A program made the position numbers and the translations under genes. Below, one piece after another: positions 1-10,579 of a stretch of 64,000 nt of DNA. How positions within the stretch are numbered: the stretch's first letter is position 1; every line of letters starts with the position of its first letter. The stretch comes from Patescibacteria group bacterium. GTDB taxonomy: Bacteria > Patescibacteriota > Patescibacteriia > Patescibacteriales > UBA12465. The stretch spans positions 711 to 64,710 of the forward strand of contig JAVEZP010000001.1 in the NCBI GenBank assembly GCA_034002925.1. The letters are read 5' to 3'. Below the pieces are notes generated by a model. It saw only the letters and a list, made by a program, of their open reading frames with translations. It searched no databases and was not told the DNA's origin.

Positions 1-384
1 AAATCTGGATTGATCAAAATTTCCAGAGTAAATAAAACCGCCTTCTACTTTTTTTATCTTAATTTCTCCTTTGCCCTTGGTGTTGTATTTTGAATTGTCC
101 CAATCGTATTTATAAGAGCTAAAATATTCCATTTCCCAACCCCCGACTATATTTGGATATTCTTGGAAACCAATTAAGATAAATAATTTTTTTATTATCC
201 AATGTTTGTTCCAAAAAAATTTTTCATATAAAAAATTTAAAAGATAAAGAATTAAAAAGATAATTGCGGAAACAATACTGTATTTCCAAAAGTTTAATTC
301 AGGAAATTTGTTGCTTACCGCATAAAACGCAAAAGTCAGTAAAACCGATATCGAAACTATTTTTTTGAGATTTAATTTAGTCAT
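1..384 (-). CDS. Partial 2-TM membrane protein (C-terminus off window); candidate CBASS effector (Cap15 / S-2TM-beta-like)
   Basis: Not in the ORF track. Reverse-strand translation from ATG 384-382 stays open to position 1: MTKLNLKKIVSISVLLTFAFYAVSNKFPELNFWKYSIVSAIIFLILYLLNFLYEKFFWNKHW...PNIVGGWEMEYFSSYKYDWDNSKYNTKGKGEIKIKKVEGGFIYSGNFDQSRF. Two N-terminal hydrophobic helices are followed by a beta-strand-rich segment. ATGA start/stop overlap with the nucleotidyltransferase gene. Confidence 0.5.
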   Translation of the reverse strand, partial: MTKLNLKKIVSISVLLTFAFYAVSNKFPELNFWKYSIVSAIIFLILYLLNFLYEKFFWNKHWIIKKLFILIGFQEYPNIVGGWEMEYFSSYKYDWDNSKYNTKGKGEIKIKKVEGGFIYSGNFDQSRF

Positions 385-1313
385 ATTTTTTCTAAAACAA
401 GATTTGCGCATTTTGCTATAAATAACTGAGCGTCTGCTAAATTCCAACAATTTTTAGACAAAAATAAAAGGTCTTGACCGTTGGCACATTTATAATATTC
501 AAGTGATTTGTTTTCGGAATCATTGAGAACATTTTGCAATATATTTATAACAATACTCTGGTAACTTCCGTTAAAAGTTGGTGCCGGGCAGTTGTATATT
601 AGGTTTTCTATAAAATATGATGGTGCGATTTTTTCGTCTATTTCTCCTTTTTCTTTTAATTTTTTTCTAATATTTTTAAAAATTCTGATAGAGTCTTTGA
701 ATTTCCCTTCCGTGTCATGATTAAGGGCTTCACAATTTTTCTTGTGTTCTTTCGGGTAGTTAATTATTAGATCATTTGTTTCGGTATTAAAAAATTTTAT
801 TCCAGAAACATATTGATCTGTAGTGTAAAAAGTAAAGCGACCATATTTTCTGTGATGAAAGGATGGAACAACATCTGCGTTTACTCGTAAGGTATTTTTT
901 GGAATTTTCAAACTCTTTTTGCCATATTCAACAGTTACTCCCGAAAAATATTTTTTTAATGATTCATGGACATCTTTCTTAAATTGAACAAATTTATATG
1001 TGCTTGAATTTGGAAAATAAGAATGAAAATCTTTCTTTTCATCTTCCGTTAATTGATCTATGTCATAAGAAAAGATTGATTTTAGTTCAATCACAACATC
1101 TACATCACTATCGTCAGTGATGTTTGTGCTATTGGCGTATGAACCCTGCAAGTAAACCTCATAATTTTCTGCTTTAATCTCATAATCATGATTATTTTTA
1201 GCAAACTCCGATAAGTAAGCTGATAATGCTTTTCTTATCTCTTCATGGGTGTGTTTGTATTTTGTCGCCGCTGGAGCAGAAGCCCATTGTTGTAACTGTT
1301 GTTCAGAAATCAT
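381..1313 (-). CDS. CD-NTase / SMODS-type nucleotidyltransferase (CdnE-like cyclic oligonucleotide synthase)
   Basis: Pol-beta NTase catalytic pattern: QGSYANSTNI...DSDVDVVIEL (GS...DxD) plus a downstream third Asp in NADVVPSF. N-terminus LQQWASAPAATKYKHTHEEIRKAL resembles CdnE-type leaders. Size is 310 aa. A 2-TM gene follows with a 4-nt overlap. Confidence 0.7.
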   Translation of the reverse strand: MISEQQLQQWASAPAATKYKHTHEEIRKALSAYLSEFAKNNHDYEIKAENYEVYLQGSYANSTNITDDSDVDVVIELKSIFSYDIDQLTEDEKKDFHSYFPNSSTYKFVQFKKDVHESLKKYFSGVTVEYGKKSLKIPKNTLRVNADVVPSFHHRKYGRFTFYTTDQYVSGIKFFNTETNDLIINYPKEHKKNCEALNHDTEGKFKDSIRIFKNIRKKLKEKGEIDEKIAPSYFIENLIYNCPAPTFNGSYQSIVINILQNVLNDSENKSLEYYKCANGQDLLFLSKNCWNLADAQLFIAKCANLVLEKI

Positions 1314-1314
1314 A

Positions 1315-2406
1315 TTATTTTTTTACAATAAATAACGCATCTGAAACAGATGTGTATTTTTCGTCTTTCCAGTTAAAATTAATTTTTAGATTATTATCGG
1401 CTTTAAATTTATCAAGATATGACCCGACACTTTCTCTTAAAAAATCAATATTTCGTTTGAGCTTCCAACTATCTTCAAGGTTATCTTTTTCTATTAACAC
1501 TAAAAATAAACGATTAGCAGAATCAAAACGTCTTTCGCCTTGTTCTTCATAAAGCCATTTAATGAGTTCTTTTTTGTTTTTCATAGCTTCTTCAACTATT
1601 TTCCACCTTGTTTTATGAAAATTGGTTATAGCTTTTTTTACTGGCTCAAGGTGGCTCTCTGATAATCTGGTAAGTAACTCGGATAGTAAAAATTTATTTT
1701 TTTGTGTTGAGTCAAATTTAATTTTGTTTGTCTTGGCAATTTGCTTGAGTTCAGTAAGTTCTGGCTTTAACCCTTTTTCTTTACGCTTCAAAGCCATGAA
1801 ACCGTCAGGAAAATAAGTCACTTTTAAGTCAAAAGGAATTTGGTCAACAAAAAAATCAACCTTTTTAATCAAACCGATCGTGGGTAACACTCTTTTGTGC
1901 TCTTTAAAAATGTCTTCAATCAAAATTGATGTCCAGTGATTAAACCAAGAACACAAAACATATCCTTTCAGACTTTCATGTATATCGTTGTCAATTTTAT
2001 CCATTAAGACATCAAAATTTTTGATTTTTTTGATGTAATTATCGACAATTGTTCTCTCAAGGTTGTTTTGATAGAGTCCGCCCCAGTCAAAAATTTTCAA
2101 TTTATATAATTCTGAAATGAGTTTATCTTCATAACCCTTTCTTTCCTTCCTTTCATTTTGAAATTTGTCATTGATAAATTTATCAATAACTTTTTCTGTT
2201 TTAGGACTATTAACGATTTGTTCGATTAAATCATTGGTTTTTTGATTGGGGTCGATATCAATTTTTTCCGCAAATTCAACAAGCAAAGCCTTTCGTGTGA
2301 TTGAACGAATTTTTAAAAATAGCAAACTATTTTGGTCTTTGAGCAATGTTTCAAAATCGTTTACATCATAAAGTTTTTTGAGCTGTTGATAAATTTTATA
2401 ATTCAT
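1315..2406 (-). CDS. Putative type II restriction endonuclease (partner of the adjacent methyltransferase)
   Basis: Starts 6 nt downstream of the DPPY methyltransferase stop. Possible PD-(D/E)xK-like motif in VDFFVDQIPFDLKVTY. I recognise no other family. Confidence 0.4.
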   Translation of the reverse strand: MNYKIYQQLKKLYDVNDFETLLKDQNSLLFLKIRSITRKALLVEFAEKIDIDPNQKTNDLIEQIVNSPKTEKVIDKFINDKFQNERKERKGYEDKLISELYKLKIFDWGGLYQNNLERTIVDNYIKKIKNFDVLMDKIDNDIHESLKGYVLCSWFNHWTSILIEDIFKEHKRVLPTIGLIKKVDFFVDQIPFDLKVTYFPDGFMALKRKEKGLKPELTELKQIAKTNKIKFDSTQKNKFLLSELLTRLSESHLEPVKKAITNFHKTRWKIVEEAMKNKKELIKWLYEEQGERRFDSANRLFLVLIEKDNLEDSWKLKRNIDFLRESVGSYLDKFKADNNLKINFNWKDEKYTSVSDALFIVKK

Positions 2407-2412
2407 AGTGTT

Positions 2413-3471
2413 TTAGTTATAACAATAAAATAAATATTCGATAGTTCCTTTGCGACTTCCTTTTCCGCCATAATGATTTGAGTATTCATTCTCATACACT
2501 TTTACTTTTTTGTGCTTTTTAATGAGTTCAACCATTTTTTCTTTTTCTGGATAACTCTTGCTGTTATAAGAAATTAACCAATAAGGAATGTGTTTACTAT
2601 TTTCAAAAAGTTTTTCAAAAGATTTCTCAATTTCAGTTTTTTGAACAAAGCCACTCTCTTTTTTTGGAAAATACGACTTTGTGCCATTTACAAATTCTTT
2701 GTCTTTCCAGTACTGAACGAATGTTTCTAAGAAATGATAAAAGGCTTGATAGTCTGGGTGGCAACCAACATAAGGTGGATCAAAATAAACTAAATCAACA
2801 TCTTTGAGTTTTGGAAGCAAAGAAATTGTGTTTTCGCAAAATACCTTATTCTTTTTTTTGTTATCAAAAATTGCATGATTATATGAATGTACAAGGCTTT
2901 GGAATATATCTTTCAGGTGTTTTGCTAGGCTTGCATTTCTTTTAATTCTATCTGGATTTTTGCTATATTCAATTGCTTTGAGATGTGCAAAATGCCCTAA
3001 TGTAATTTTTCTTGTTAGAGATCGGTTCATTAAAGTCAAAGCTAATGCTTTTTTGTATTCATTGTCTAATTTCTCAACATTTGCTCGGAATTTATCTAAA
3101 AATTGAGCTTGGTCTTTTTCAAAAAAAACTCCAGTAAAAATCCTTTCGATTAGATTATCAGCTTTTGTAGTTTCATCTAACAAAATATCTATATCATTTT
3201 TATCAAGAATGATATTTTGATTTTCAATTAAAGCTTTAGAAATTAGAGAATTACACTTTAAAAAGTCGTTACTATAAACCTTATAGCCTCTGTCTTTAAA
3301 ATAATATCCAACAACGGATGTCCCGCTAAAAGCGTCAAAAACAGTTTCAATATCTTTTGGTGCAATTTCAAGAATCCACTTAATAAGTTTCTCTTTGCTT
3401 CCCAAATATTGGGTTCTTGGAAATTGGTGTATTTTATATTTTTCGCCGAATAGCGTAGTTTGTGACATCAT
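2413..3471 (-). CDS. N6-adenine DNA methyltransferase (D12/Dam-like, DPPY motif)
   Basis: SAM-binding motif DAFSGTSVVGYYF and catalytic motif LVYFDPPYVG. Confidence 0.8.
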   Translation of the reverse strand: MMSQTTLFGEKYKIHQFPRTQYLGSKEKLIKWILEIAPKDIETVFDAFSGTSVVGYYFKDRGYKVYSNDFLKCNSLISKALIENQNIILDKNDIDILLDETTKADNLIERIFTGVFFEKDQAQFLDKFRANVEKLDNEYKKALALTLMNRSLTRKITLGHFAHLKAIEYSKNPDRIKRNASLAKHLKDIFQSLVHSYNHAIFDNKKKNKVFCENTISLLPKLKDVDLVYFDPPYVGCHPDYQAFYHFLETFVQYWKDKEFVNGTKSYFPKKESGFVQKTEIEKSFEKLFENSKHIPYWLISYNSKSYPEKEKMVELIKKHKKVKVYENEYSNHYGGKGSRKGTIEYLFYCYN

Positions 3472-3497
3472 AATTTATATTCTGGTATAGTAGTTGT

Positions 3498-3503
3498 ATT
3501 ATA
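3498..3503 (-). promoter_or_regulatory. Candidate -10 box (TATAAT) for the MTase-REase-NTase-2TM operon
   Basis: Plus-strand attata is TATAAT on the minus strand, 27 nt upstream of ATG 3471. Confidence 0.3.
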
Positions 3504-3640
3504 TTTTTTCCCCTTATAAATAAATCGTTTTCGGAGCGATAGCGGAGAAAACACCTTATTCCCCTCTATAATTAAAGAAAAAGAAATTTGAAAATTTTTT
3601 AAAACAGTTGGGCGTTAACCCAGAAAAGAAAAGGAATATT

Positions 3641-3775
3641 TCAGCTAACGTTTCGGCATATACGATGTTGCGAGCGAGCGTGGCGGTATAATTTTCTTAC
3701 CGCCTAAGCGAGCGAAGCAATATGGGCGGAACGACGAGGCACGAGGAGTGTAACCGTATATGCCGTGTTAGCTGA
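3641..3775. repeat. E1: GC-rich imperfect-palindrome element (attC-like / structured-RNA-like)
   Basis: Outer stem TCAGCTAAC (3641-3649) / GTTAGCTGA (3767-3775). Inner stem CGGCATATACG (3654-3664) / CGTATATGCCG (3755-3765). Internal hairpin GGCGGTA (3682-3688) / TACCGCC (3698-3704), flanked by GAGCGAGCG and AGCGAGCGA. Homologous to E2. Confidence 0.75.
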
Positions 3776-3784
3776 TGTAATTTT

Positions 3785-4534
3785 TTATTTTTCTTCCTCT
3801 TTTTTCTTCGACCTTGAAAATAATCCAAAAATCAAAGCAATAAGTCCTCCTGTAATAGCTCCAATTATACCTTTTTCTGCAACGCCTTCAAAAATACTTG
3901 GAGAGTCATTCTTTTTTGCTTCTTCTTCGTTATATTCATATCCTTGTTCATAACTAAAAGAATCAATGATTTGATTGAAAGTTGATAAATTTTCTGAATA
4001 TTCAGATTTAACGGAATAAAAATTGAGTTGAGTTATTCCACTTTTGCCTAAAAACATAGCTAATAGACCCTTTACTTTTCCGACATTGGCAACATCCATT
4101 TCTAGGTTCATAAAAATAATATTTCTTTCTTTATCTACGAATGGGTCTTGAAGACTTGCATTAGTCATTAGTTCTGAATATTCATCAATTTTTTTGTTTA
4201 CGCTTTCAGAAAATTTATCACTTTCAAATGTCTGGGTAATTTGACTATATGAAGGAGTATTTACTTTATGTTGTTGAACAAGGATATATGGATATTGAAA
4301 AGCTTCGGTGTTCTCAAGCTGAAAGCCTGCCGCATAATCAATAAATTGTCCGCCAGTCATATCTGCTGCTTGTTGCATTACTTCGTCGATTGTAGATTTT
4401 GGAATTTCAACCCACCCGCTTGGAATTGTGAATGAGTAGTGATATTGCTGGCTTACGTAATCAAGGCTTTCAGCGTTTGCCATTGTCGGTAGCAGAAAGA
4501 AGCAAAAAAGAATGACGGTTAAGATTTTTTTCAT
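3785..4534 (-). CDS. Exported protein of unknown function with a C-terminal TM anchor
   Basis: Signal peptide MKKILTVILFCFFLLPTMANA. C-terminal helix GIIGAITGGLIALIFGLF followed by the charged tail SRSKKKEEEK. Confidence 0.6.
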   Translation of the reverse strand: MKKILTVILFCFFLLPTMANAESLDYVSQQYHYSFTIPSGWVEIPKSTIDEVMQQAADMTGGQFIDYAAGFQLENTEAFQYPYILVQQHKVNTPSYSQITQTFESDKFSESVNKKIDEYSELMTNASLQDPFVDKERNIIFMNLEMDVANVGKVKGLLAMFLGKSGITQLNFYSVKSEYSENLSTFNQIIDSFSYEQGYEYNEEEAKKNDSPSIFEGVAEKGIIGAITGGLIALIFGLFSRSKKKEEEK

Positions 4535-4564
4535 AGTATTTATGGTTAAAAATAAAAAATTATT

Positions 4565-4665
4565 TCGGCTAACATTTCAGTATATCTGATGTTTGCCGTA
4601 GCGGAGCGGAGGCAAATATAGGTCGAGCGAGGGCACGAGCGAGCCAGATATACTGTGTTGTGCGA
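4565..4665. repeat. E2: second copy of the GC-rich imperfect-palindrome element
   Basis: TCGGCTAAC (4565-4573), CAGTATATCTG (4578-4588) / CAGATATACTG (4645-4655), GTTGTGCGA (4657-4665). Hairpin TTTGCC (4592-4597) / GGCAAA (4611-4616). GAGCGA-gggcac-GAGCGA at 4625-4642. Same architecture as E1 with compensatory stem changes. Confidence 0.75.
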
Positions 4666-4707
4666 GGGTGAGCGACGTTAGGAGCGAAAGTGCAACGCCC
4701 CCTTGAG

Positions 4708-4752
4708 TTCTCTTTTGTGAAAAAAAATCCAATTCAATTTTGGCACTTTTTA
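4708..4752. repeat. Left arm of the inverted repeat bracketing the Ltp-like gene
   Basis: TTCTCTTTTGTGAAAAAA-(10 nt)-AATTTTGGCACTTTTTA. Matches the reverse complement of 5550-5597. Confidence 0.7.
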
Positions 4753-4767
4753 TCCTTATTTATGCAC

Positions 4768-5529
4768 TTAATCATTAAGGTGTTGAATGGCATAATCCGC
4801 TTCAGATTTCGTAAATTTTTCGCCATATGCCGAAGTCAGTTGGTCGTGAATAGCTGATGGAGACATATTCATAGTATCTTGATAAGTTTTTGCTTTAACT
4901 AAAGCATTCGCATTCCAATCAGCTGTCATATTATCTATTGCATATTGTGCGGCATCAGCTGAAAACTTTTCGCCATATTCTGAAACAAGCTGATCATAAA
5001 CGCCTTGCTTCGACATGTGCATTGTTTTTGCATACATTGTTGCTTTGTTAAGAGCAGATTTATATTCAGCCGGAACAGACGCTTCCTTGGTAGGTTCAGG
5101 TTTTTCCTGGGGAGTAGGAATTATTTCTGTTTTTTCCGTTTCAACTGGTTTTTCGTTGTTAGTGGTTTTAGGCTGTTCTTCTGTTGGTTTTATTTCATCC
5201 TTCTTTTGTTCAATGTTTGATACAGATTGTTCTTGCTGAACTGGTGGCTGATTATTTTGTTGTTTTGAAGTATCAATAGTCGAGCCAAAAATTATAAAAC
5301 CAATAATTATAACAACCGCTTTCATTCCTCCAGAAAGATGAAATTTCCATTTTTCATCAACCAATTTATTAACAGGAGGAAGAAGAACAGCGGCCATTAT
5401 TAACATTACGATTCCTGGAACTGGCTCAGAAAAAACAGATATAATTCCAGTTAAAGCAAAAAGAATGCCAAAAATCCAGCTCAAGATTAGACCAACTGTG
5501 ATTTTTTTACTTGTTGTTTGTTCTGTCAT
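4768..5529 (-). CDS. Membrane-anchored protein with two Ltp-type repeats (superinfection-exclusion-like surface protein)
   Basis: N-terminal TM helices and a Pro/Glu/Lys/Thr-rich linker. Two repeats follow: YKSALNKATMYAKTMHMSKQGVYDQLVSEYGEKFSADAAQYAIDNM and ALVKAKTYQDTMNMSPSAIHDQLTSAYGEKFTKSEADYAIQHL. Both match the Ltp (host cell surface-exposed lipoprotein) repeat pattern. Confidence 0.7.
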   Translation of the reverse strand: MTEQTTSKKITVGLILSWIFGILFALTGIISVFSEPVPGIVMLIMAAVLLPPVNKLVDEKWKFHLSGGMKAVVIIIGFIIFGSTIDTSKQQNNQPPVQQEQSVSNIEQKKDEIKPTEEQPKTTNNEKPVETEKTEIIPTPQEKPEPTKEASVPAEYKSALNKATMYAKTMHMSKQGVYDQLVSEYGEKFSADAAQYAIDNMTADWNANALVKAKTYQDTMNMSPSAIHDQLTSAYGEKFTKSEADYAIQHLND

Positions 5530-5549
5530 AGTTTTTTAAATTAAAGAAT

Positions 5550-5597
5550 TAAAAAGTGCTAAAATTTTCCTTGTTTTTATTTTTTCACAAAAGAGAA
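5550..5597. repeat. Right arm of the inverted repeat bracketing the Ltp-like gene (its native 5' leader)
   Basis: The reverse complement reads TTCTCTTTTGTGAAAAAA-(13 nt)-AATTTTAGCACTTTTTA. Confidence 0.7.
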
Positions 5598-5699
5598 TTT
5601 CGTACAACTCTTTATTATACAATCAAAGCATCTTATAACTACCATTATTTGTATGTTATACAAATATATGCTAATATATTAATCCACTTATTTACTTTA

Positions 5700-5728
5700 A
5701 TTATAACACTAGGATTAAGGGTATGCAA
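5700..5728 (-). promoter_or_regulatory. Outward sigma70-type promoter pointing into the cassette array; its -35 overlaps the recombinase start codon
   Basis: Minus strand reads TTGCAT (rc of 5723-5728, i.e. ATGCAA of the recombinase), a 17-nt spacer ending in TGT, then TATAAT (rc of 5700-5705). This is an extended -10, TGTTATAAT. Confidence 0.5.
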
Positions 5729-6535
5729 TCAATTTTAGATAACACTAAAAACACATTAAAATTAAAAAACTATAGCTCAAGAACTATCAAGTCCTATTTG
5801 TTTTACATCAAAGAATATCTAGTTTTTGCCCAAAAAAATGCTTTACATGATAAAAATATTGCAGTAGAAAAATATCTTTTACAGAAACAATCTAAAAATA
5901 ATTCCTCACAAACAATTAATTTAGCCTTAAATGCTATTAAATTTCTATACAGAGATGTTCTTAGAGTTAAAGATAACATTAGTTTTAAATGCGCCAAAAG
6001 AAGCAATAAAATCCCAATTGTTCTCTCTAGGTTAGAAATTGAGGAAATTATCTCTGTTATTAGCAACACAAAACACAAGCTAGCTATCACTTTAAGCTAT
6101 GCTGCTGGCCTACGAGTAAGCGAAACAGTGAGCTTGAAGGTAAAAGATCTGGATTTAGATAGTTTAACTATCCATCTAAAAGAAGCTAAGGGAAGAAAAG
6201 ATAGAATCACCATATTTCCAGATAAACTTAAATCGAGCATAAAAAATTTAATAGCCGGAAAAACTAGTAATGATTTAGTCTTTGAAAACAATAGAGGCGC
6301 TAAACTAAGCACTACTTCCCTACAAAAAGTGTTTCGTTCTGCTCTAAAGAAAACAAATATAAAAAAAGAAGCTACTTTCCATTCACTTAGGCATAGCTTC
6401 GCTACTCATTTGCTTGAAAATGGAGTTGACGTGAGATATATTCAAGAATTATTAGGACATGCTAACATACGTACCACACAAATATACACTAAAGTTACCA
6501 ATCCGCAACTAAAAAATATCAAAAGTCCATTATAA
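5723..6535 (+). CDS. Tyrosine site-specific recombinase (Xer/integrase family, short form)
   Basis: N-terminal SAM-like domain (YSSRTIKSYLFYIKEYLVF, LNAIKFLYRDVL). Catalytic region AAGLRVSETVSLKVKDLDL, KGRKDRITIFP, HSLRHSFATHLLENGVDVRYIQELLGHANIRTTQIYTKV (R..HxxR..Y). Confidence 0.85.
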   Translation: MQSILDNTKNTLKLKNYSSRTIKSYLFYIKEYLVFAQKNALHDKNIAVEKYLLQKQSKNNSSQTINLALNAIKFLYRDVLRVKDNISFKCAKRSNKIPIVLSRLEIEEIISVISNTKHKLAITLSYAAGLRVSETVSLKVKDLDLDSLTIHLKEAKGRKDRITIFPDKLKSSIKNLIAGKTSNDLVFENNRGAKLSTTSLQKVFRSALKKTNIKKEATFHSLRHSFATHLLENGVDVRYIQELLGHANIRTTQIYTKVTNPQLKNIKSPL

Positions 6536-6538
6536 AAT

Positions 6539-7474
6539 CTAATTTTTACCCAAAAACTCATCTATTTCTTTTTCTGCTTCATGAATATTGTCAATCCAAA
6601 CTATCTCTCTGCCTTGTTTTTGCCAACGCTTAAACCAAGTTTTTTGACGCTTGGCGAAACGATAGGAAGCGGTATTAAGTTGCGTTAGCATTTCCTCATA
6701 ACTAATTTTTTTGGTCAAGAAATAAGCAATAAAGCGATATTCTAAACCAAAAGAAATAAGACGCTTCCAAGACACTCCTTGCTGATGTAGATGTTCTACT
6801 TCAGCTATCATATTTTCATTTTGCAATCTATCATGCACACGCTTAGCGATTCTCTCTCGTAACTCCTCATCAGACCTCTCTAAACCGAGCACTAAAAAAT
6901 CATAGGGGCTGTCTTTTTTTTGATTAAGAAGCTCAGGATTGTCTAAAATTTCTAAATAACGCGCTAAACGTCTTGGGTTATTTCTTTCACTATTATTTAA
7001 TCTTAAAGCAAAATCTTCATTAATATTCTTTATTTTTTGCCATAAAACTTCTGTTCCTAGGGCCTCCCAGGCCTCTCTTTGTTTTAAATTACCTTTAACA
7101 CTACTTAAATGATAATTATCTACCACTGCCTGTAGATACAGACCGGTGCCACCCACAATAATAGGCAACTTGCCCCTGGAGAGCACATCTTCAATAGCTT
7201 TAAAAGCTAATTTTTGATATTTAGCGAGATTAAAATTAGTTTTTGGCGAAACTACATCAATCAGATGATAGGGAATATTTTGACCTTCAAAATTATACTC
7301 TTTTAAATCTTTAGCCGTGCCAATATCCATGCCTTTATAGACTTGACGACTATCAGCCGAAATAATCTCACCCTGATAACGAGCTGCTAAACGCACCCCT
7401 AAAGCTGTTTTACCAGAAGCGGTAGATCCTAATAACACAACTATTTTTGCTTTTGTAATCTGTTTTTTTATCAT
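6539..7474 (-). CDS. miaA: tRNA dimethylallyltransferase
   Basis: P-loop GSTASGKT; IISADSRQVYKGMDIGTAK; full-length family pattern. Confidence 0.9.
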   Translation of the reverse strand: MIKKQITKAKIVVLLGSTASGKTALGVRLAARYQGEIISADSRQVYKGMDIGTAKDLKEYNFEGQNIPYHLIDVVSPKTNFNLAKYQKLAFKAIEDVLSRGKLPIIVGGTGLYLQAVVDNYHLSSVKGNLKQREAWEALGTEVLWQKIKNINEDFALRLNNSERNNPRRLARYLEILDNPELLNQKKDSPYDFLVLGLERSDEELRERIAKRVHDRLQNENMIAEVEHLHQQGVSWKRLISFGLEYRFIAYFLTKKISYEEMLTQLNTASYRFAKRQKTWFKRWQKQGREIVWIDNIHEAEKEIDEFLGKN

Positions 7475-8778
7475 AAATTATCATCCAATACTTCTACTAA
7501 GTCAGCACTTAGACCAAAGCTTTTAACCGCTTTAACACGCAATAAAACAAAACGACCAATTAAATCTTGAGAACTAGAAAATTGCACACTTTTAAAACTA
7601 GAGGTTTTGCCTTGATAGACTCCTTTTTTAGTTTTACGATCAACTAAAACTTTTACTACTCTATCAACATAATCTTGATTAATTTTGAGACTAGTTTGTC
7701 TTAAAATATTTTCTAAAGTTAATTCTCTCTCTTTTTTCTCCAGTTCGCTAACATTGTCTTTCATCTTCCAAGCAACAGTTCCGGGGCGCGGGCTATATTG
7801 AGAAATATAAGCCATATCAAATTTTAATTTTTTAAATAATTTAGCCGTATTTTGAAATTGTTTTTTTGTTTCTCCAGGAAAACCAACAATCACGTCAGTG
7901 CTAATCGCAATGCCAGGCTTAGCTTGTCTAATTTTTTCAATTAAACTAATAAAATGCTCAGCTGTATAACGACGATTCATAGCTTGTAAAATATCATCAT
8001 CACCTGACTGAACGGCTAAATGGAGATGGTGACAGATTTTATCAGAAGCAGACATGACTCTAATTAATTCATCAGATAAATCTTTAGGATGGCTAGAAAA
8101 AAAACGCAACCAAAAATTTCCTGGCAAAGAGGCAATTTTTTTTAATAATAAAGGAAAATCAATGCGTCCACTACGATAACTATTAACATTTTGAGCAATT
8201 AAAACAATTTCTTTATAGCCTTTAGCTAACAAGTTCTCAACTTCTTTGATAATATCAGAAGAAGCGCGATATACTTCTCGGCCACGAGCATAGGGTACCA
8301 CACAATATGAACAGAAATTATTACAGCCATTACCAATAGGCACATAGGCGGTAAAAGAGCTGTAGTATTTAGGTGTAATGCCTAAATATTTTTCACCACT
8401 TAAACGTCTTAATTCTGTTTGACTGCTTGATGACTGATGATTGGCATTATGCAATAAAGCTAATAAATTAGGCAACTCATTAATGGGCATAAATAAATCT
8501 ACTTTGCCTTTTAATCTTTTCTGCACATCTTCCCTGTTGGCCAAACAACCAGTAATAACAATTTTAACCCTTGGATTAGTTTTGCGAATTTGATTCACTA
8601 AACCATAAACACGATCTTCCGCCGCCTGACGAATACCACAAGTAGTAAGAATTACTAAATCAGCCTTAATATAATTATCAAGTGCTTGATATTTATTTTC
8701 ACTTAAAAAGGCCTCTATTCTTTCACTGTCAGCTTGATTCATATGACAGCCAATTGTAATAATATAATAACTTTTCAT
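7471..8778 (-). CDS. miaB: tRNA methylthiotransferase (MiaB-like radical SAM)
   Basis: UPF0004 N-domain YYIITIGCHMNQADSE, radical-SAM motif GCNNFCSYCVVPYARG, C-terminal TRAM-like region. Start moved to the internal MKSYY (8778), which avoids overlap with the upstream gene. Confidence 0.85.
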   Translation of the reverse strand: MKSYYIITIGCHMNQADSERIEAFLSENKYQALDNYIKADLVILTTCGIRQAAEDRVYGLVNQIRKTNPRVKIVITGCLANREDVQKRLKGKVDLFMPINELPNLLALLHNANHQSSSSQTELRRLSGEKYLGITPKYYSSFTAYVPIGNGCNNFCSYCVVPYARGREVYRASSDIIKEVENLLAKGYKEIVLIAQNVNSYRSGRIDFPLLLKKIASLPGNFWLRFFSSHPKDLSDELIRVMSASDKICHHLHLAVQSGDDDILQAMNRRYTAEHFISLIEKIRQAKPGIAISTDVIVGFPGETKKQFQNTAKLFKKLKFDMAYISQYSPRPGTVAWKMKDNVSELEKKERELTLENILRQTSLKINQDYVDRVVKVLVDRKTKKGVYQGKTSSFKSVQFSSSQDLIGRFVLLRVKAVKSFGLSADLVEVLDDNL

Positions 8779-8782
8779 AGAA

Positions 8783-10579
8783 TTATTGAGCGAGTAATGT
8801 CTCATCATTTACAATCATTGGTTTAACAAGATATAAAGCAAAGGGGCCACGTCTTTTAATAGGCTCTATCTGTAAATTAAAATTTGGCAATTTTCTCTCA
8901 TTGAGATAAAGGAGATCTTTTTCCGGAAAAGCAAAATTATAATAATAAACCGGATAATATTTAACCAATTGAGAGATTACTTCATTAACATCATTATTAG
9001 TTAATAAGGCGCTAACAATCTTTCTTTCTGGAAACAATTGCTTATCATGATACTGAGTGATAATAATAGCCTCTTCTTCTGTGCTTTCTAAAATAGCAGC
9101 TGCATCTTGACGATCGCGAAAATGATTATAATATAGCGTCATTAAACCCTCCTCAGAACCGAAAAAAACAAAACTTAGAGAAATAAAAATATAAAAACCT
9201 GTTAATAATGACGCCATGAGTAGATAAAGATAATTTTGCCCTCGCAAACGCCAAGCTTCTAATTTAATAAAACGAGACAAAGAAGCAAATAACTTGGAAA
9301 AACGAACAATAAAAAAAGCAGCAAAAGGCATGGCCATAATATAAATTGGCAGCCAATAACGAGTATAAGAATTACCAATAGTAAAGCGGCTAGGATCAGG
9401 ATTATCATTAAATTGCCAACTACCATAATACAAAACTAAAATAACAGACAATAAAAACCAAGATAACAAATAAAGCACTGCTCCTTTTTTTGGTCTTTTA
9501 AGCCATTTAAAAGCAAAGATTATAAAACCAAAGGCAGTAAATAGACATAAGAGTGGAAACATTTTAATCACATAGTAATAAAACATCTCTAAAGATTGGC
9601 GTGGATGATAACCAAAATAAAAAATATTATCTTTCAACACTCGCCAAACATTTTCTAACCTAGAAATACTATTTTGCAAATTAATATGTAAAATTTCTCC
9701 ACTAGCTTGAGATATTTGTTGCAAAGAAGCATTCATCTCGCTATAACCACCGTAAAAAGGAGAAGAATAAAGTATTTGATTCCAGTAAAAAACTGGCAAT
9801 AAAGATAATAGCAAAGCAAAGATACCAGTAACAATCGTTAGCAAACTTAAACGCCGAGCATAAAATAGCCAAATCAATAAAAATAATGGCCCTAACCAAA
9901 TCAATTCTGAACTCCTACTAGCAATAGCGCCCCCTAAAAACAAACCAGACAAAAAAGCGGAGCCATTTGCAATCAGTGTTTGGCGATCAAAAGACCAGGC
10001 TAAAAAAGCTCTTTTTTTAATAATAGAATGCTTAATGGTTAATAATAAGAAATAAGCCGAGCCTAACAAAAAGACAACAAACAAGACGTTATGAAAAAGA
10101 CTGCGCACCGTGTAAAAAATATAAACCGGAAAGGAAGCTAATAAAATAGCGGCAATTAAAGCTGTTTTTTTACCCCAAAGCTGACGGACAAAGGCATAAA
10201 AGAAAATAATACCTAAAGTCGCAAAAAAGGGCGTAAAATAAGGAATAAGCTGAGGGCCAACTAACATCGCTAAATGAGCATAGAGCAAAATAATACCCAA
10301 AAAACTCACTGGCTTTAACCAAGCATGATCACTACGGATGCTACGAGGATGAACAATTTCTTCACCAAATAAATTTGCTTCTTCAAACACAGCAATATTA
10401 CCCTCACTAGCATAGTTGTTAATAAAAAAATAATTCGCTGTTTCGTCAGGTGATAAAAATTTAGTATAAGCAGAATCTTGCACGCTACTCACCAAAAAAG
10501 CAGTGCCCGCTAAAAATAATAGCGCTGTCAAAGCGACTAAGATATTTTCTAAATTTTTCCGCCACCAGACTGAATTCAT
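8783..10579 (-). CDS. Polytopic membrane protein, probable GT-C glycosyltransferase (ArnT/PMT-like)
   Basis: More than 10 predicted TM helices. First-loop acidic motif LSPDETANYFF, as in GT39/GT83 enzymes. Large C-terminal soluble domain. Confidence 0.45.
   Translation of the reverse strand: MNSVWWRKNLENILVALTALLFLAGTAFLVSSVQDSAYTKFLSPDETANYFFINNYASEGNIAVFEEANLFGEEIVHPRSIRSDHAWLKPVSFLGIILLYAHLAMLVGPQLIPYFTPFFATLGIIFFYAFVRQLWGKKTALIAAILLASFPVYIFYTVRSLFHNVLFVVFLLGSAYFLLLTIKHSIIKKRAFLAWSFDRQTLIANGSAFLSGLFLGGAIASRSSELIWLGPLFLLIWLFYARRLSLLTIVTGIFALLLSLLPVFYWNQILYSSPFYGGYSEMNASLQQISQASGEILHINLQNSISRLENVWRVLKDNIFYFGYHPRQSLEMFYYYVIKMFPLLCLFTAFGFIIFAFKWLKRPKKGAVLYLLSWFLLSVILVLYYGSWQFNDNPDPSRFTIGNSYTRYWLPIYIMAMPFAAFFIVRFSKLFASLSRFIKLEAWRLRGQNYLYLLMASLLTGFYIFISLSFVFFGSEEGLMTLYYNHFRDRQDAAAILESTEEEAIIITQYHDKQLFPERKIVSALLTNNDVNEVISQLVKYYPVYYYNFAFPEKDLLYLNERKLPNFNLQIEPIKRRGPFALYLVKPMIVNDETLLAQ

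Follow-up and report, generated by a model that had tools for sequence, protein, structure and literature searches.

An inverted repeat around an Ltp-like gene in a Patescibacteria group bacterium probably marks the ends of a mobile cassette in an integron-like array

In a 64,000-nucleotide stretch of DNA from a Patescibacteria group bacterium (assembly GCA_034002925.1, contig JAVEZP010000001.1, positions 711 to 64,710; the whole of this stretch is referred to here as the window), an inverted repeat brackets an entire gene for an Ltp-like protein, and a gene encoding a tyrosine recombinase starts 126 bp from the right arm of the repeat. The question that this locus raises is what such a repeat does beside such an enzyme. 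An earlier note on the sequence proposed that the arms border an invertible segment (4753-5549), the flipping of which would separate the gene from an outside promoter. The analysis described here favors another reading, to which a probability of about 0.75 is assigned, namely that each arm of the inverted repeat forms one end of a mobile cassette with a single gene, which belongs to an integron-like array with an Xer-type recombinase. The observations that carry this reading are a conserved architecture of the units, their fixed polarity relative to the recombinase, exact breakpoints between strains, and the occurrence of the same cassette in different contexts.

The Ltp-like gene (4768-5529, minus strand) encodes a 253-amino-acid protein with N-terminal membrane segments and two Ltp repeats (PF07553, E = 1.8e-47), and the protein is 100% identical to a product named 'Ltp family lipoprotein [Patescibacteria group bacterium]'. 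The left arm of the inverted repeat (4708-4752) lies 3' of the stop codon, and the right arm (5550-5597) is the 5' leader of the gene. Each arm consists of two blocks. The 18-nucleotide (nt) blocks at 4708-4725 and 5580-5597 are 100% complementary, while the 17-nt blocks at 4736-4752 and 5550-5566 are complementary with one mismatch; the spacers between the blocks, 10 nt in the left arm and 13 nt in the right arm, are unrelated. The longest exact inverted repeat between 4300 and 6000 is 18 nt, compared with at most 15 nt in 300 dinucleotide-preserving shuffles. Each block occurs only once in the window, which rules out a dispersed repeat or a promoter motif. Complementarity, uniqueness and shuffles agree in bearing out the arms as the earlier note had placed them, and its identification of the right arm as the leader of the gene and its distance to the recombinase gene are likewise correct. 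An outer pair that it had also pointed out, GTTGTGCG (4657-4664) and GTTGTACG (reverse complement of 5601-5608), is present and proved to be a conserved cassette terminus. The 18-mer has four exact matches in IMG/VR, which occur in unrelated contexts lacking the Ltp gene and the second arm and are attributed to chance.

The inverted repeat is kept at orthologous loci. In orthologs of the Ltp cassette, whose proteins are 81-97% identical, both arms are conserved, and the second block changes on the two arms together (AGCACTTTTTA and TAAAAAGTGCC in the window, ATTACTTTTTA and TAAAAAGTAAT in contig L124), which indicates that pairing of this block is under selection.

Units of the same kind are associated with related recombinases elsewhere. 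Recombinase homologs of up to 74% identity were gathered from JGI metagenomes and from a genome set with one representative per species, and come mostly from Patescibacteria metagenome-assembled genomes (MAGs). Very many of the contigs stop 40-400 bp upstream of the recombinase gene. Where upstream sequence is present, it includes a single unit or several, each 300-3400 bp long and enclosed by inverted repeats. About 27 such units, from 14 loci and the window, carry GTTRNNYGATGT at the distal end and, on the other strand, GTTRNNYGAAAT at the proximal end, with the same polarity throughout, and past each terminus comes a unit-specific inverted repeat, which measures about 45 nt in the Ltp unit and 14-20 nt otherwise. 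Of the 22 units located upstream of a recombinase, 21 are taken up by a single open reading frame (ORF) that is directed away from the recombinase. The array of L030 lies downstream of the recombinase, and there too the GAAAT end and the ORF start face the recombinase. Compact ORFs in a single orientation, directed away from the attI site, characterize integron arrays and are found here as well; in the window there are two cassettes with one gene each and one unit with several genes. The proteins encoded by the cassettes are diverse and include Ltp and secreted proteins, peptidase S51, Fic proteins, S-adenosylmethionine-dependent methyltransferases, nucleotidyltransferases and membrane proteins. 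Among 25 proteins compared, no homology was found between cassette proteins of different arrays, so mobility was traced through the Ltp orthologs instead.

Evidence that whole cassettes have moved comes from comparisons of closely related sequences. Public Logan contigs include some whose recombinase is 99-100% identical to that of the window, and in two of these, L002 and L003, a peptidase S51 gene takes the place of the Ltp gene; the homology with the window stops at the outer edge of the right arm, and the peptidase gene in L002 is bounded by an inverted repeat in like manner (88/786). Three strain pairs (the window and L002, L073 and L074, and L049 and L050) have 100% identity across 900 bp toward the recombinase, whereas their sequences toward the cassettes are unrelated, and the break in all three falls exactly at RNNY/AAC (a slash within a motif marks the break here and below). 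Contigs L142 and L143 start at AAC/TCTTTAT. In a related species the synteny of recombinase, miaA and miaB, the latter two of which are located downstream of the recombinase gene in the window, is kept with a methyltransferase gene as the first cassette.

A second line of evidence is an identical Ltp cassette, P0003, whose upstream context takes at least five forms and whose downstream context takes at least two. These contexts include a 273-amino-acid recombinase (L124 and L126), a different attI-type flank (L129), two others (L128 and L131) and, in L127, a position that is not the first of the array, behind another junction hairpin (...CAGATATCGGCAAAC/GTT). On the upstream side the contexts part exactly 5' of GTT, and on the downstream side immediately after ...CAGATATACTGAAAC/GTT, and these divergence points define the mobile unit as TT-RNNY-GAAAT followed by the ORF, a trailer and RNNYAAC-hairpin-G. 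On this basis the Ltp cassette of the window has integron-type boundaries and is 1035 nt long (4573-5607, minus strand), starting with the TT that follows the G at 5608 and ending with the G at 4573. Its proximal terminus, GTTGTACGAAAT (5597-5608, minus strand), consists of an R'-type box and GAAAT. The boundaries of integron cassettes lie between the G and the TT of the R' box, with the first bases of the cassette derived from its own attC site, and both the breakpoints and the RNNY matches described below follow this rule.

In the public assembly of SRR25572339, the recombinase (L004), the Ltp unit (L001) and the next gene (L122) are found on separate contigs of about 1 kb. L001 is unbroken across both arms (window 5654 to 4668), and the assembly graph does not branch at the arms. 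The breaks in the graph are instead at 5625-5654, a cluster of strain single-nucleotide polymorphisms near the recombinase gene, and at 4668-4697 and 3701-3730, both of which are inside the elements between genes.

These elements at the junctions between units are homologous, structured and 85-170 nt in length. Junction A of the window (4562-4665) begins with ATTTC-GGCTAAC (4562-4573) and ATTT, followed by the stem CAGTATATCTG (4578-4588) and a GC-rich loop; these are succeeded by the returning stem CAGATATACTG (4645-4655), a T and GTTGTGCGA (4657-4665). The element is predicted to fold into a long hairpin. Junction B (3638-3778) has ATTTCAGCTAAC, GTTT, the stem CGGCATATACG (3654-3664) and a loop, and then the stem CGTATATGCCG (3755-3765), a T and GTTAGCTGATGT (3767-3778). 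Approximately 30 other junctions, from Uhrbacteria, Falkowbacteria, Gracilibacteria and unclassified MAGs, are built like junction A and partly agree with it in loop sequence. Their common layout, in the sense of the window's plus strand, is ATTTC-RNNYAAC, GTTY, an 11-nt stem, a loop, the second strand of the stem, T, and GTTRNNY-GATGT. The stem has the form NNNNRTATNNG, and the GC-rich loop contains the conserved stretches ATGTTTGCC..GGCAAATAT and GGGTG..AGCGA. The inner stems vary in sequence and keep their complementarity, with up to four pair types per position. One set of junctions was chosen for stem complementarity, and a second was chosen by the terminal motifs only, which makes it unbiased with respect to pairing; the stems are evident in the second set too.

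The attC site of an integron is an imperfect palindrome, R''(RYYYAAC)-L''...L'-R'(GTTRRRY), of about 57-141 nt, and one such site follows each cassette. Read on the coding strand, the junctions described here have the same layout, with the ORF followed by R''(RNNYAAC)-L''-loop-L'-R'(GTTRNNY). The spacers between the boxes are asymmetric (3-4 nt compared with 1 nt), and all such junctions are upstream of the recombinase and none downstream. The RNNY boxes across one junction are not complementary (14-22 of 30), and the two ends of a single cassette share RNNY. Sharing of RNNY within a cassette and not across a junction follows the integron logic of a split R' box.

The GC-rich segment that interrupts the left side of the inverted repeat had been described as an insert of 43 nt (4665-4707). 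The interruption is real, but it measures 42 nt (4666-4707, between GTTGTGCGA and T-TCTCTTTTG) and belongs to a conserved type of module. The segment, GGGTGAGCG...GGAGCGAAAG.GCAACG.CCCCTTGAG, separates the distal box from the left arm. Most Ltp orthologs possess it, among them those on L123, L124 and L131, and the one on L135 does not; homologous modules are also found behind GTTATACGAGGG (L042 and L060) and GTTAAACGAGG (L137). The segment is a hairpin module, conserved and optional, that comes after the R box.

Several further observations concern the junctions and the arrays. The loop ATGTTTGCCGTAGCG(G or T)AGCGGAGGCAAATAT at 4589-4619 of the window is almost identical to positions 8116-8146 of L020, a contig from a Gracilibacteria MAG with a recombinase of 51% identity. 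In the same contig an apparently reversed unit (ACATCAGCTAAC at 8089-8100) was rejected, as no inverted-repeat partner exists for it. The left R box of this junction is preceded by ACATC in place of ATTTC, and the adjoining sequence on the left does not resemble a cassette; the junction is probably the far end of the array. In one Uhrbacteria array (L016), a near-perfect 46-nt palindrome with the core TTATGCAAAATGCGCGGCGCATTTTGCATAA occurs in three copies (6617-6662, 8032-8077 and 9359-9404), each preceded by GTTAKGCGATGTGCGCCGCGCGCAC, and these copies may be cassettes without an ORF or may belong to another class of site. A unit with the same termini is located at 13040-13458 of L030, a contig from a Firmicutes MAG, downstream of a recombinase of 41% identity, and L025, from a Nanoarchaeota MAG, has a homolog of 42% identity with an inverted repeat (82/575) upstream; the system may extend beyond Patescibacteria. 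In 2-kb bins, the GC skew of L006, L044 and L076 is about zero inside the cassette arrays and regains the flanking value on both sides, which fits a foreign origin of the cassettes.

The counterpart of an integron attI site appears to be a dif-like palindrome beside the recombinase gene. In approximately 30 related loci a palindromic core, ATTTC-RNNYAAC / TNGTTAT / TATACGAAWT (left arm, centre and right arm), is found 75-120 bp upstream of the recombinase start codon. In the window it lies about 115 bp upstream and reads ATTTCGTACAAC, TCTTTAT, TATACAATCAAA (5597-5627). The core is a palindrome in duplex form with arms of 11-12 bp and a centre of 6-7 bp, which agrees with Xer cores in general (arms of about 11 bp and a centre of 6-8 bp), and its left arm doubles as the proximal end of the first cassette. 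An additional direct copy of the arm motif, GTTATACAAAT inside TTGTATGTTATACAAAT (5655-5665, plus strand), lies about 25-40 nt past the core, and since TTGTATGTTATRCRAA is conserved about 25-40 nt beyond the core in many loci, it is possible that this copy is an accessory binding site for the recombinase. In some loci the arm is TTATGTGAAAT, which is presumably one base away from the XerD arm of E. coli dif. The site is not the dif site of the chromosomal terminus, a candidate that was discarded since GC skew has the same sign on either side of the arrays in L006, L044 and L008 and does not switch at 5.6 kb in the window. Within the right arm of this site, a small cluster of substitutions at 5621-5624 separates the window (TATACAATCAAA) from L003 (TATACGAGTAAA), and the L003 form is nearer the family consensus TATACGAAWT. 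L008 has a 44-nt hairpin (GTTATATGAAGT...ATTTCATATAAC, 8280-8323) located 117 bp upstream of the recombinase, with facing terminus motifs and nothing between them, which may be an empty or minimal site.

The recombinase (5723-6535, plus strand) is a protein of 270 amino acids from the Xer/IntI clade with matches to PF00589 (2.1e-43) and PF13495. Its best NCBIfam match is to the integron integrase family TIGR02249, with 217.6 bits (cutoff 265) in two stretches, followed by XerA (NF040815) with 212.3 bits (cutoff 220). The best match in PDB, the integron integrase VchIntIA (2A3V), aligns in two pieces that skip chain residues ~210-240, and XerA (5HXY) aligns with the window recombinase from end to end. 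The protein lacks the IntI-specific insertion and has 270 amino acids compared with about 320 for IntI. About 6,900 homologs of approximately 270 amino acids are found, named XerD or 'tyrosine recombinase/integron integrase' and derived from Patescibacteria MAGs. By these comparisons the enzyme is nearest to integron integrases and XerA. Integron integrases are defined by an additional domain near patch III (Messier and Roy 2001, as cited in PMC9668308), and the insertion is needed in true integrons for handling folded attC sites (PMC9668308). Xer-related recombinases of candidate phyla have been placed in a 'Cand' subgroup without an assigned role (PMC8138268).

Based on these features, a model for the favored reading can be outlined. 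The platform would consist of a chromosomal Xer/IntI-type recombinase of 270 amino acids, transcribed in one direction, with the dif-like attI-type site upstream of it. Cassettes would be inserted successively at this site and all would be transcribed away from the recombinase. In the orientation of its gene, each cassette would comprise TT-RNNY-GAAAT and a short leader in front of one ORF, and behind it the leader's complement, ACATC-RNNYAAC and the attC-like hairpin (stem, conserved GC-rich loop and stem), which would close with the G of the next GTT. The recombination site would be a long imperfect palindrome with the crossover at or beside G/TT, well inside the palindrome, such that integration would leave some 30-60 nt of one palindrome arm 5' of the cassette and the remainder 3' of it. 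By this geometry, a crossover inside the palindrome would account for an inverted repeat that brackets the gene. The adjoining recombinase would catalyze the exchange, and the earlier note's assumption that the arms are functionally tied to this enzyme is retained here. The cassette would presumably pass through a circular or single-stranded folded form, as occurs in integrons or CTX phage. In integrons the bottom strand of attC recombines in its folded state and replication resolves the product. An excised circle would join ...CAGATATACTGAAATG/TTGTACGAAATTCTC..., and a deletion would join ...GGCTAAC/TCTTTAT. In folding predictions with DNA parameters, the joined ends of the Ltp cassette form one hairpin of about 270 nt (-49.9 kcal/mol for the coding strand and -57.4 kcal/mol for the other strand), and the integrated junction with the start of its neighbor has -27.3 kcal/mol. 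Expression of the cassettes would come from the recombinase side. The expected outcome is gain, loss and reshuffling of accessory genes rather than reversible inversion.

Several points weigh against this reading. The insertion that defines integron integrases is absent from the window recombinase, and a hairpin mechanism is thus not guaranteed; the activity of the enzyme and its link to the sites are inferred from adjacency only. The order and spacing of the attC boxes are present in about 30 junctions, but the consensus is looser, with R boxes that fit GTTRNNY and not GTTRRRY, lengths reach about 170 nt, and the loops are far more conserved than those of integron attC sites. The pairing percentages from the junction set chosen for complementarity are biased. 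No circular cassette, empty site or excision product was observed in the assembled contigs, and a consensus scan of 3400-5800 revealed no cassette promoter inside or outside the arms. Judged by its integrase the system would fall outside the integrons, while the logic of its cassettes and sites appears to be that of an integron.

Exchange of cassettes by an Xer-type enzyme acting on double-stranded DNA is an alternative that accommodates some of these points. In such a scheme, similar to that of the pdif modules of Acinetobacter or of integrative mobile elements exploiting Xer (IMEX), duplex dif-like sites would be used for cointegrate formation and resolution or for two-site exchange, without a folded single-stranded intermediate. 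The site beside the recombinase has the classic form of a palindrome in duplex DNA, its arms being 11-12 bp and its centre 6-7 bp long, the end-to-end alignment with XerA and the lack of the hairpin-handling insertion suit such an enzyme, and the 5' half of the junctions can be read as arm, spacer and arm (ATTTCRNNYAAC, GTTYNNN and RTATNNGATGT). In this duplex reading, however, the junction spacer is 2 nt longer than in the attI-like site, and the inner stems vary yet stay complementary across loops of 30-145 nt, which folding explains better. The array is also away from the GC-skew switch, so that the site is not the chromosomal dif, and the cassettes lack replication or phage functions. Duplex exchange is accordingly regarded as unlikely, although it is the least improbable of the alternatives. 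IMEX as such were dismissed, given that the cassettes are single accessory genes without replication genes of their own. A transposon or miniature inverted-repeat transposable element with terminal inverted repeats was also dismissed, there being no flanking direct repeat or target duplication and no transposase; the arms are unique in the window, and the ends of the units always abut the GTT/AAC recombination boxes.

Phase variation by inversion, in which the recombinase would flip the segment between the arms and thereby couple or uncouple the Ltp ORF and an outside promoter, is considered very improbable. Flanking inverted repeats and a nearby recombinase gene, as expected of an invertible element, are present, and the joint changes of the arms in orthologs could equally result from homogenization during inversion. 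The segment between the arms comprises the whole gene with its own leader. On the other hand, no flipped copy exists among the ~27 units or among 15 contigs with Ltp orthologs, in all of which the ORF start is beside the GAAAT end. Both orientations were sought in related genomes and in the SRR25572339 assembly graph, and neither a flipped copy nor a branch at the arms was found. The ORFs of 21 of 22 upstream units point the same way, the asymmetry of GATGT and GAAAT is constant relative to the recombinase, and the distal end as a duplex would seem not to form a full core site with attI-like spacing. The variation that does occur between strains consists of whole-cassette replacements that break at GTT/AAC, and ON/OFF switching of 4753-5549 as proposed in the earlier note is therefore not upheld. 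A role at the RNA level is given a similarly slight chance. According to this explanation the 5' leader would pair with the 3' trailer of the cassette transcript and affect stability or translation, or the left arm would drive an antisense RNA, and the location at cassette ends would be secondary. Both arms are within the probable transcript, complementarity is kept through changes on the two arms in orthologs, and the extended repeat is not known to be needed in integron recombination. Against it, repeats of this kind but of unrelated sequence are also found around genes that have no relation to one another, they always begin at the conserved GTTRNNYGAWRT termini where the recombination breakpoints fall, and the left arm has no promoter-like site in the consensus scan. 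In that scan promoter and terminator counts for 3400-5800 equal the shuffled background, with nothing usable for the Ltp gene or the left arm. An RNA role is compatible with the cassette explanation, and the two are not mutually exclusive.

Comparison with described systems places the array closest to, though not within, the sedentary chromosomal integrons of bacteria such as Vibrio. Shared features are a tyrosine recombinase from the same clade whose gene is divergent from the array, an attachment site immediately 5' of that gene, and compact, mostly single-ORF cassettes in one orientation, each followed by an imperfect palindrome, R''(RNNYAAC)-L''-loop-L'-R'(GTTRNNY), with boundaries at G/TT. 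The first bases of a cassette match its own R'' and not that of its neighbor, content varies between strains, assemblies are fragmented, and defense and surface functions are found among the cassettes. Unlike in integrons, the recombinase has no IntI-specific insertion, the palindrome runs 20-50 nt past the R boxes and so brackets every ORF with a long inverted repeat, the loops have conserved GC-rich sequence and in some cases an additional hairpin module, the attI-like site is no more than a dif-like palindrome, and the hosts are Patescibacteria. CTX phage and other IMEX that use XerCD at dif resemble the system in the Xer-type enzyme, the dif-like target, tandem accumulation at the site, and a site made of two inverted half-sites about 90 nt apart that can fold into a forked hairpin. 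They comprise phages and plasmid-like elements that bring replication genes of their own and integrate at the terminus dif, whereas the present cassettes are single accessory genes, the site is off the skew switch and the recombinase gene is part of the platform.

The pdif modules of Acinetobacter are likewise discrete accessory-gene modules that are bracketed by inverted Xer-type sites, arrayed, and exchanged between replicons. They are plasmid-borne, however, with complete 28-bp XerC/XerD sites that are shared by neighbors, the modules alternate in orientation, and they depend on host XerC/XerD encoded elsewhere, whereas the arrays described here have structured junction elements, a fixed polarity and an adjoining dedicated recombinase. 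Invertons such as fimS/FimBE, the capsule promoters of Bacteroides and the hsdS shufflons share the inverted repeat beside a gene for a site-specific recombinase, but occur in both orientations and flip a promoter or alternative coding ends, while the units described here are invariant in orientation and the repeat encloses a complete gene together with its leader. XerS/difSL, XerH/difH and archaeal XerA/dif consist of one Xer-type recombinase with a palindromic target just upstream, and the window recombinase has full-length similarity to XerA; their sites, in contrast, resolve chromosome dimers at the terminus and have no cassette arrays.

The remaining units of the window are located distal to the Ltp cassette. 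Cassette 2 (3649-4572, minus strand) encodes a secreted or membrane protein of 249 amino acids (ORF 3785-4534) with a weak match to DUF2167. It has its own inverted repeat (3767-3792 and 4548-4573, GTTAGCYGAWRTAATTTTTTATTTTT), and the repeat-bounded unit around the gene spans 3767-4573. The most distal unit (1-3648, minus strand) contains several genes and extends past the window edge; its proximal terminus is GTTAGCTGAAAT at 3638-3649, and its distal end was not found within the window. PADLOC identifies a type II DNA methyltransferase (2413-3471, MTase_II, 5.7e-59) and the oligonucleotide cyclase of a cyclic oligonucleotide-based antiphage signaling system (CBASS; 381-1313, Cyclase, 1.9e-91) in this unit. 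A 363-amino-acid protein encoded beside the methyltransferase gene (1315-2406) has no family match and may be a restriction enzyme. A further minus-strand gene, which may encode the CBASS effector, starts at 384, overlapping the stop codon of the cyclase gene, and runs off the window. The most distal unit is thus interpreted as a defense block of restriction-modification and CBASS. The Ltp protein and the 249-amino-acid protein have no PADLOC match. With Rfam at gathering thresholds only three tRNAs were found in the whole window, and a search of 4400-5800 with E up to 1 gave two chance-level matches, the junction elements matching no curated RNA family.

It is possible, though put at somewhat below even odds, that the system represents a separate and previously undescribed lineage of integron-like gene-capture platforms, which would be built on a minimal Xer-type recombinase without the IntI I2 insertion, large conserved hairpin sites and a dif-like attI. 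Such a lineage would be widespread in Patescibacteria, given the thousands of homologs of ~270 amino acids, many of them on cassette-sized contigs, and could be either an extant form intermediate between Xer/dif systems and integrons or the same solution arrived at independently, serving as a main route for swaps of surface and anti-phage genes. Open-access papers and bioRxiv preprints yielded no description of integron-like arrays in Patescibacteria, although an earlier description may exist. Integron integrases are thought to have been derived from Xer-like enzymes by the addition of one helix that enabled the use of folded single-stranded sites (PMC4792948, PMC7790495). A natural system that pairs integron-style cassettes and hairpin sites with a plain Xer-type enzyme and a dif-like site would make the evolution of integrons directly testable, and integron searches that demand the IntI-specific domain would miss whole classes of cassette platforms. 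A cassette platform would also explain why Patescibacteria assemblies break beside the recombinase gene.

Patescibacteria have tiny genomes and depend on hosts. For these bacteria the platform would serve specifically for the exchange of surface, toxin-related and anti-phage genes, and the cargo of the window, an Ltp-type surface or exclusion protein, a secreted protein, and restriction-modification and CBASS genes, is of this kind.

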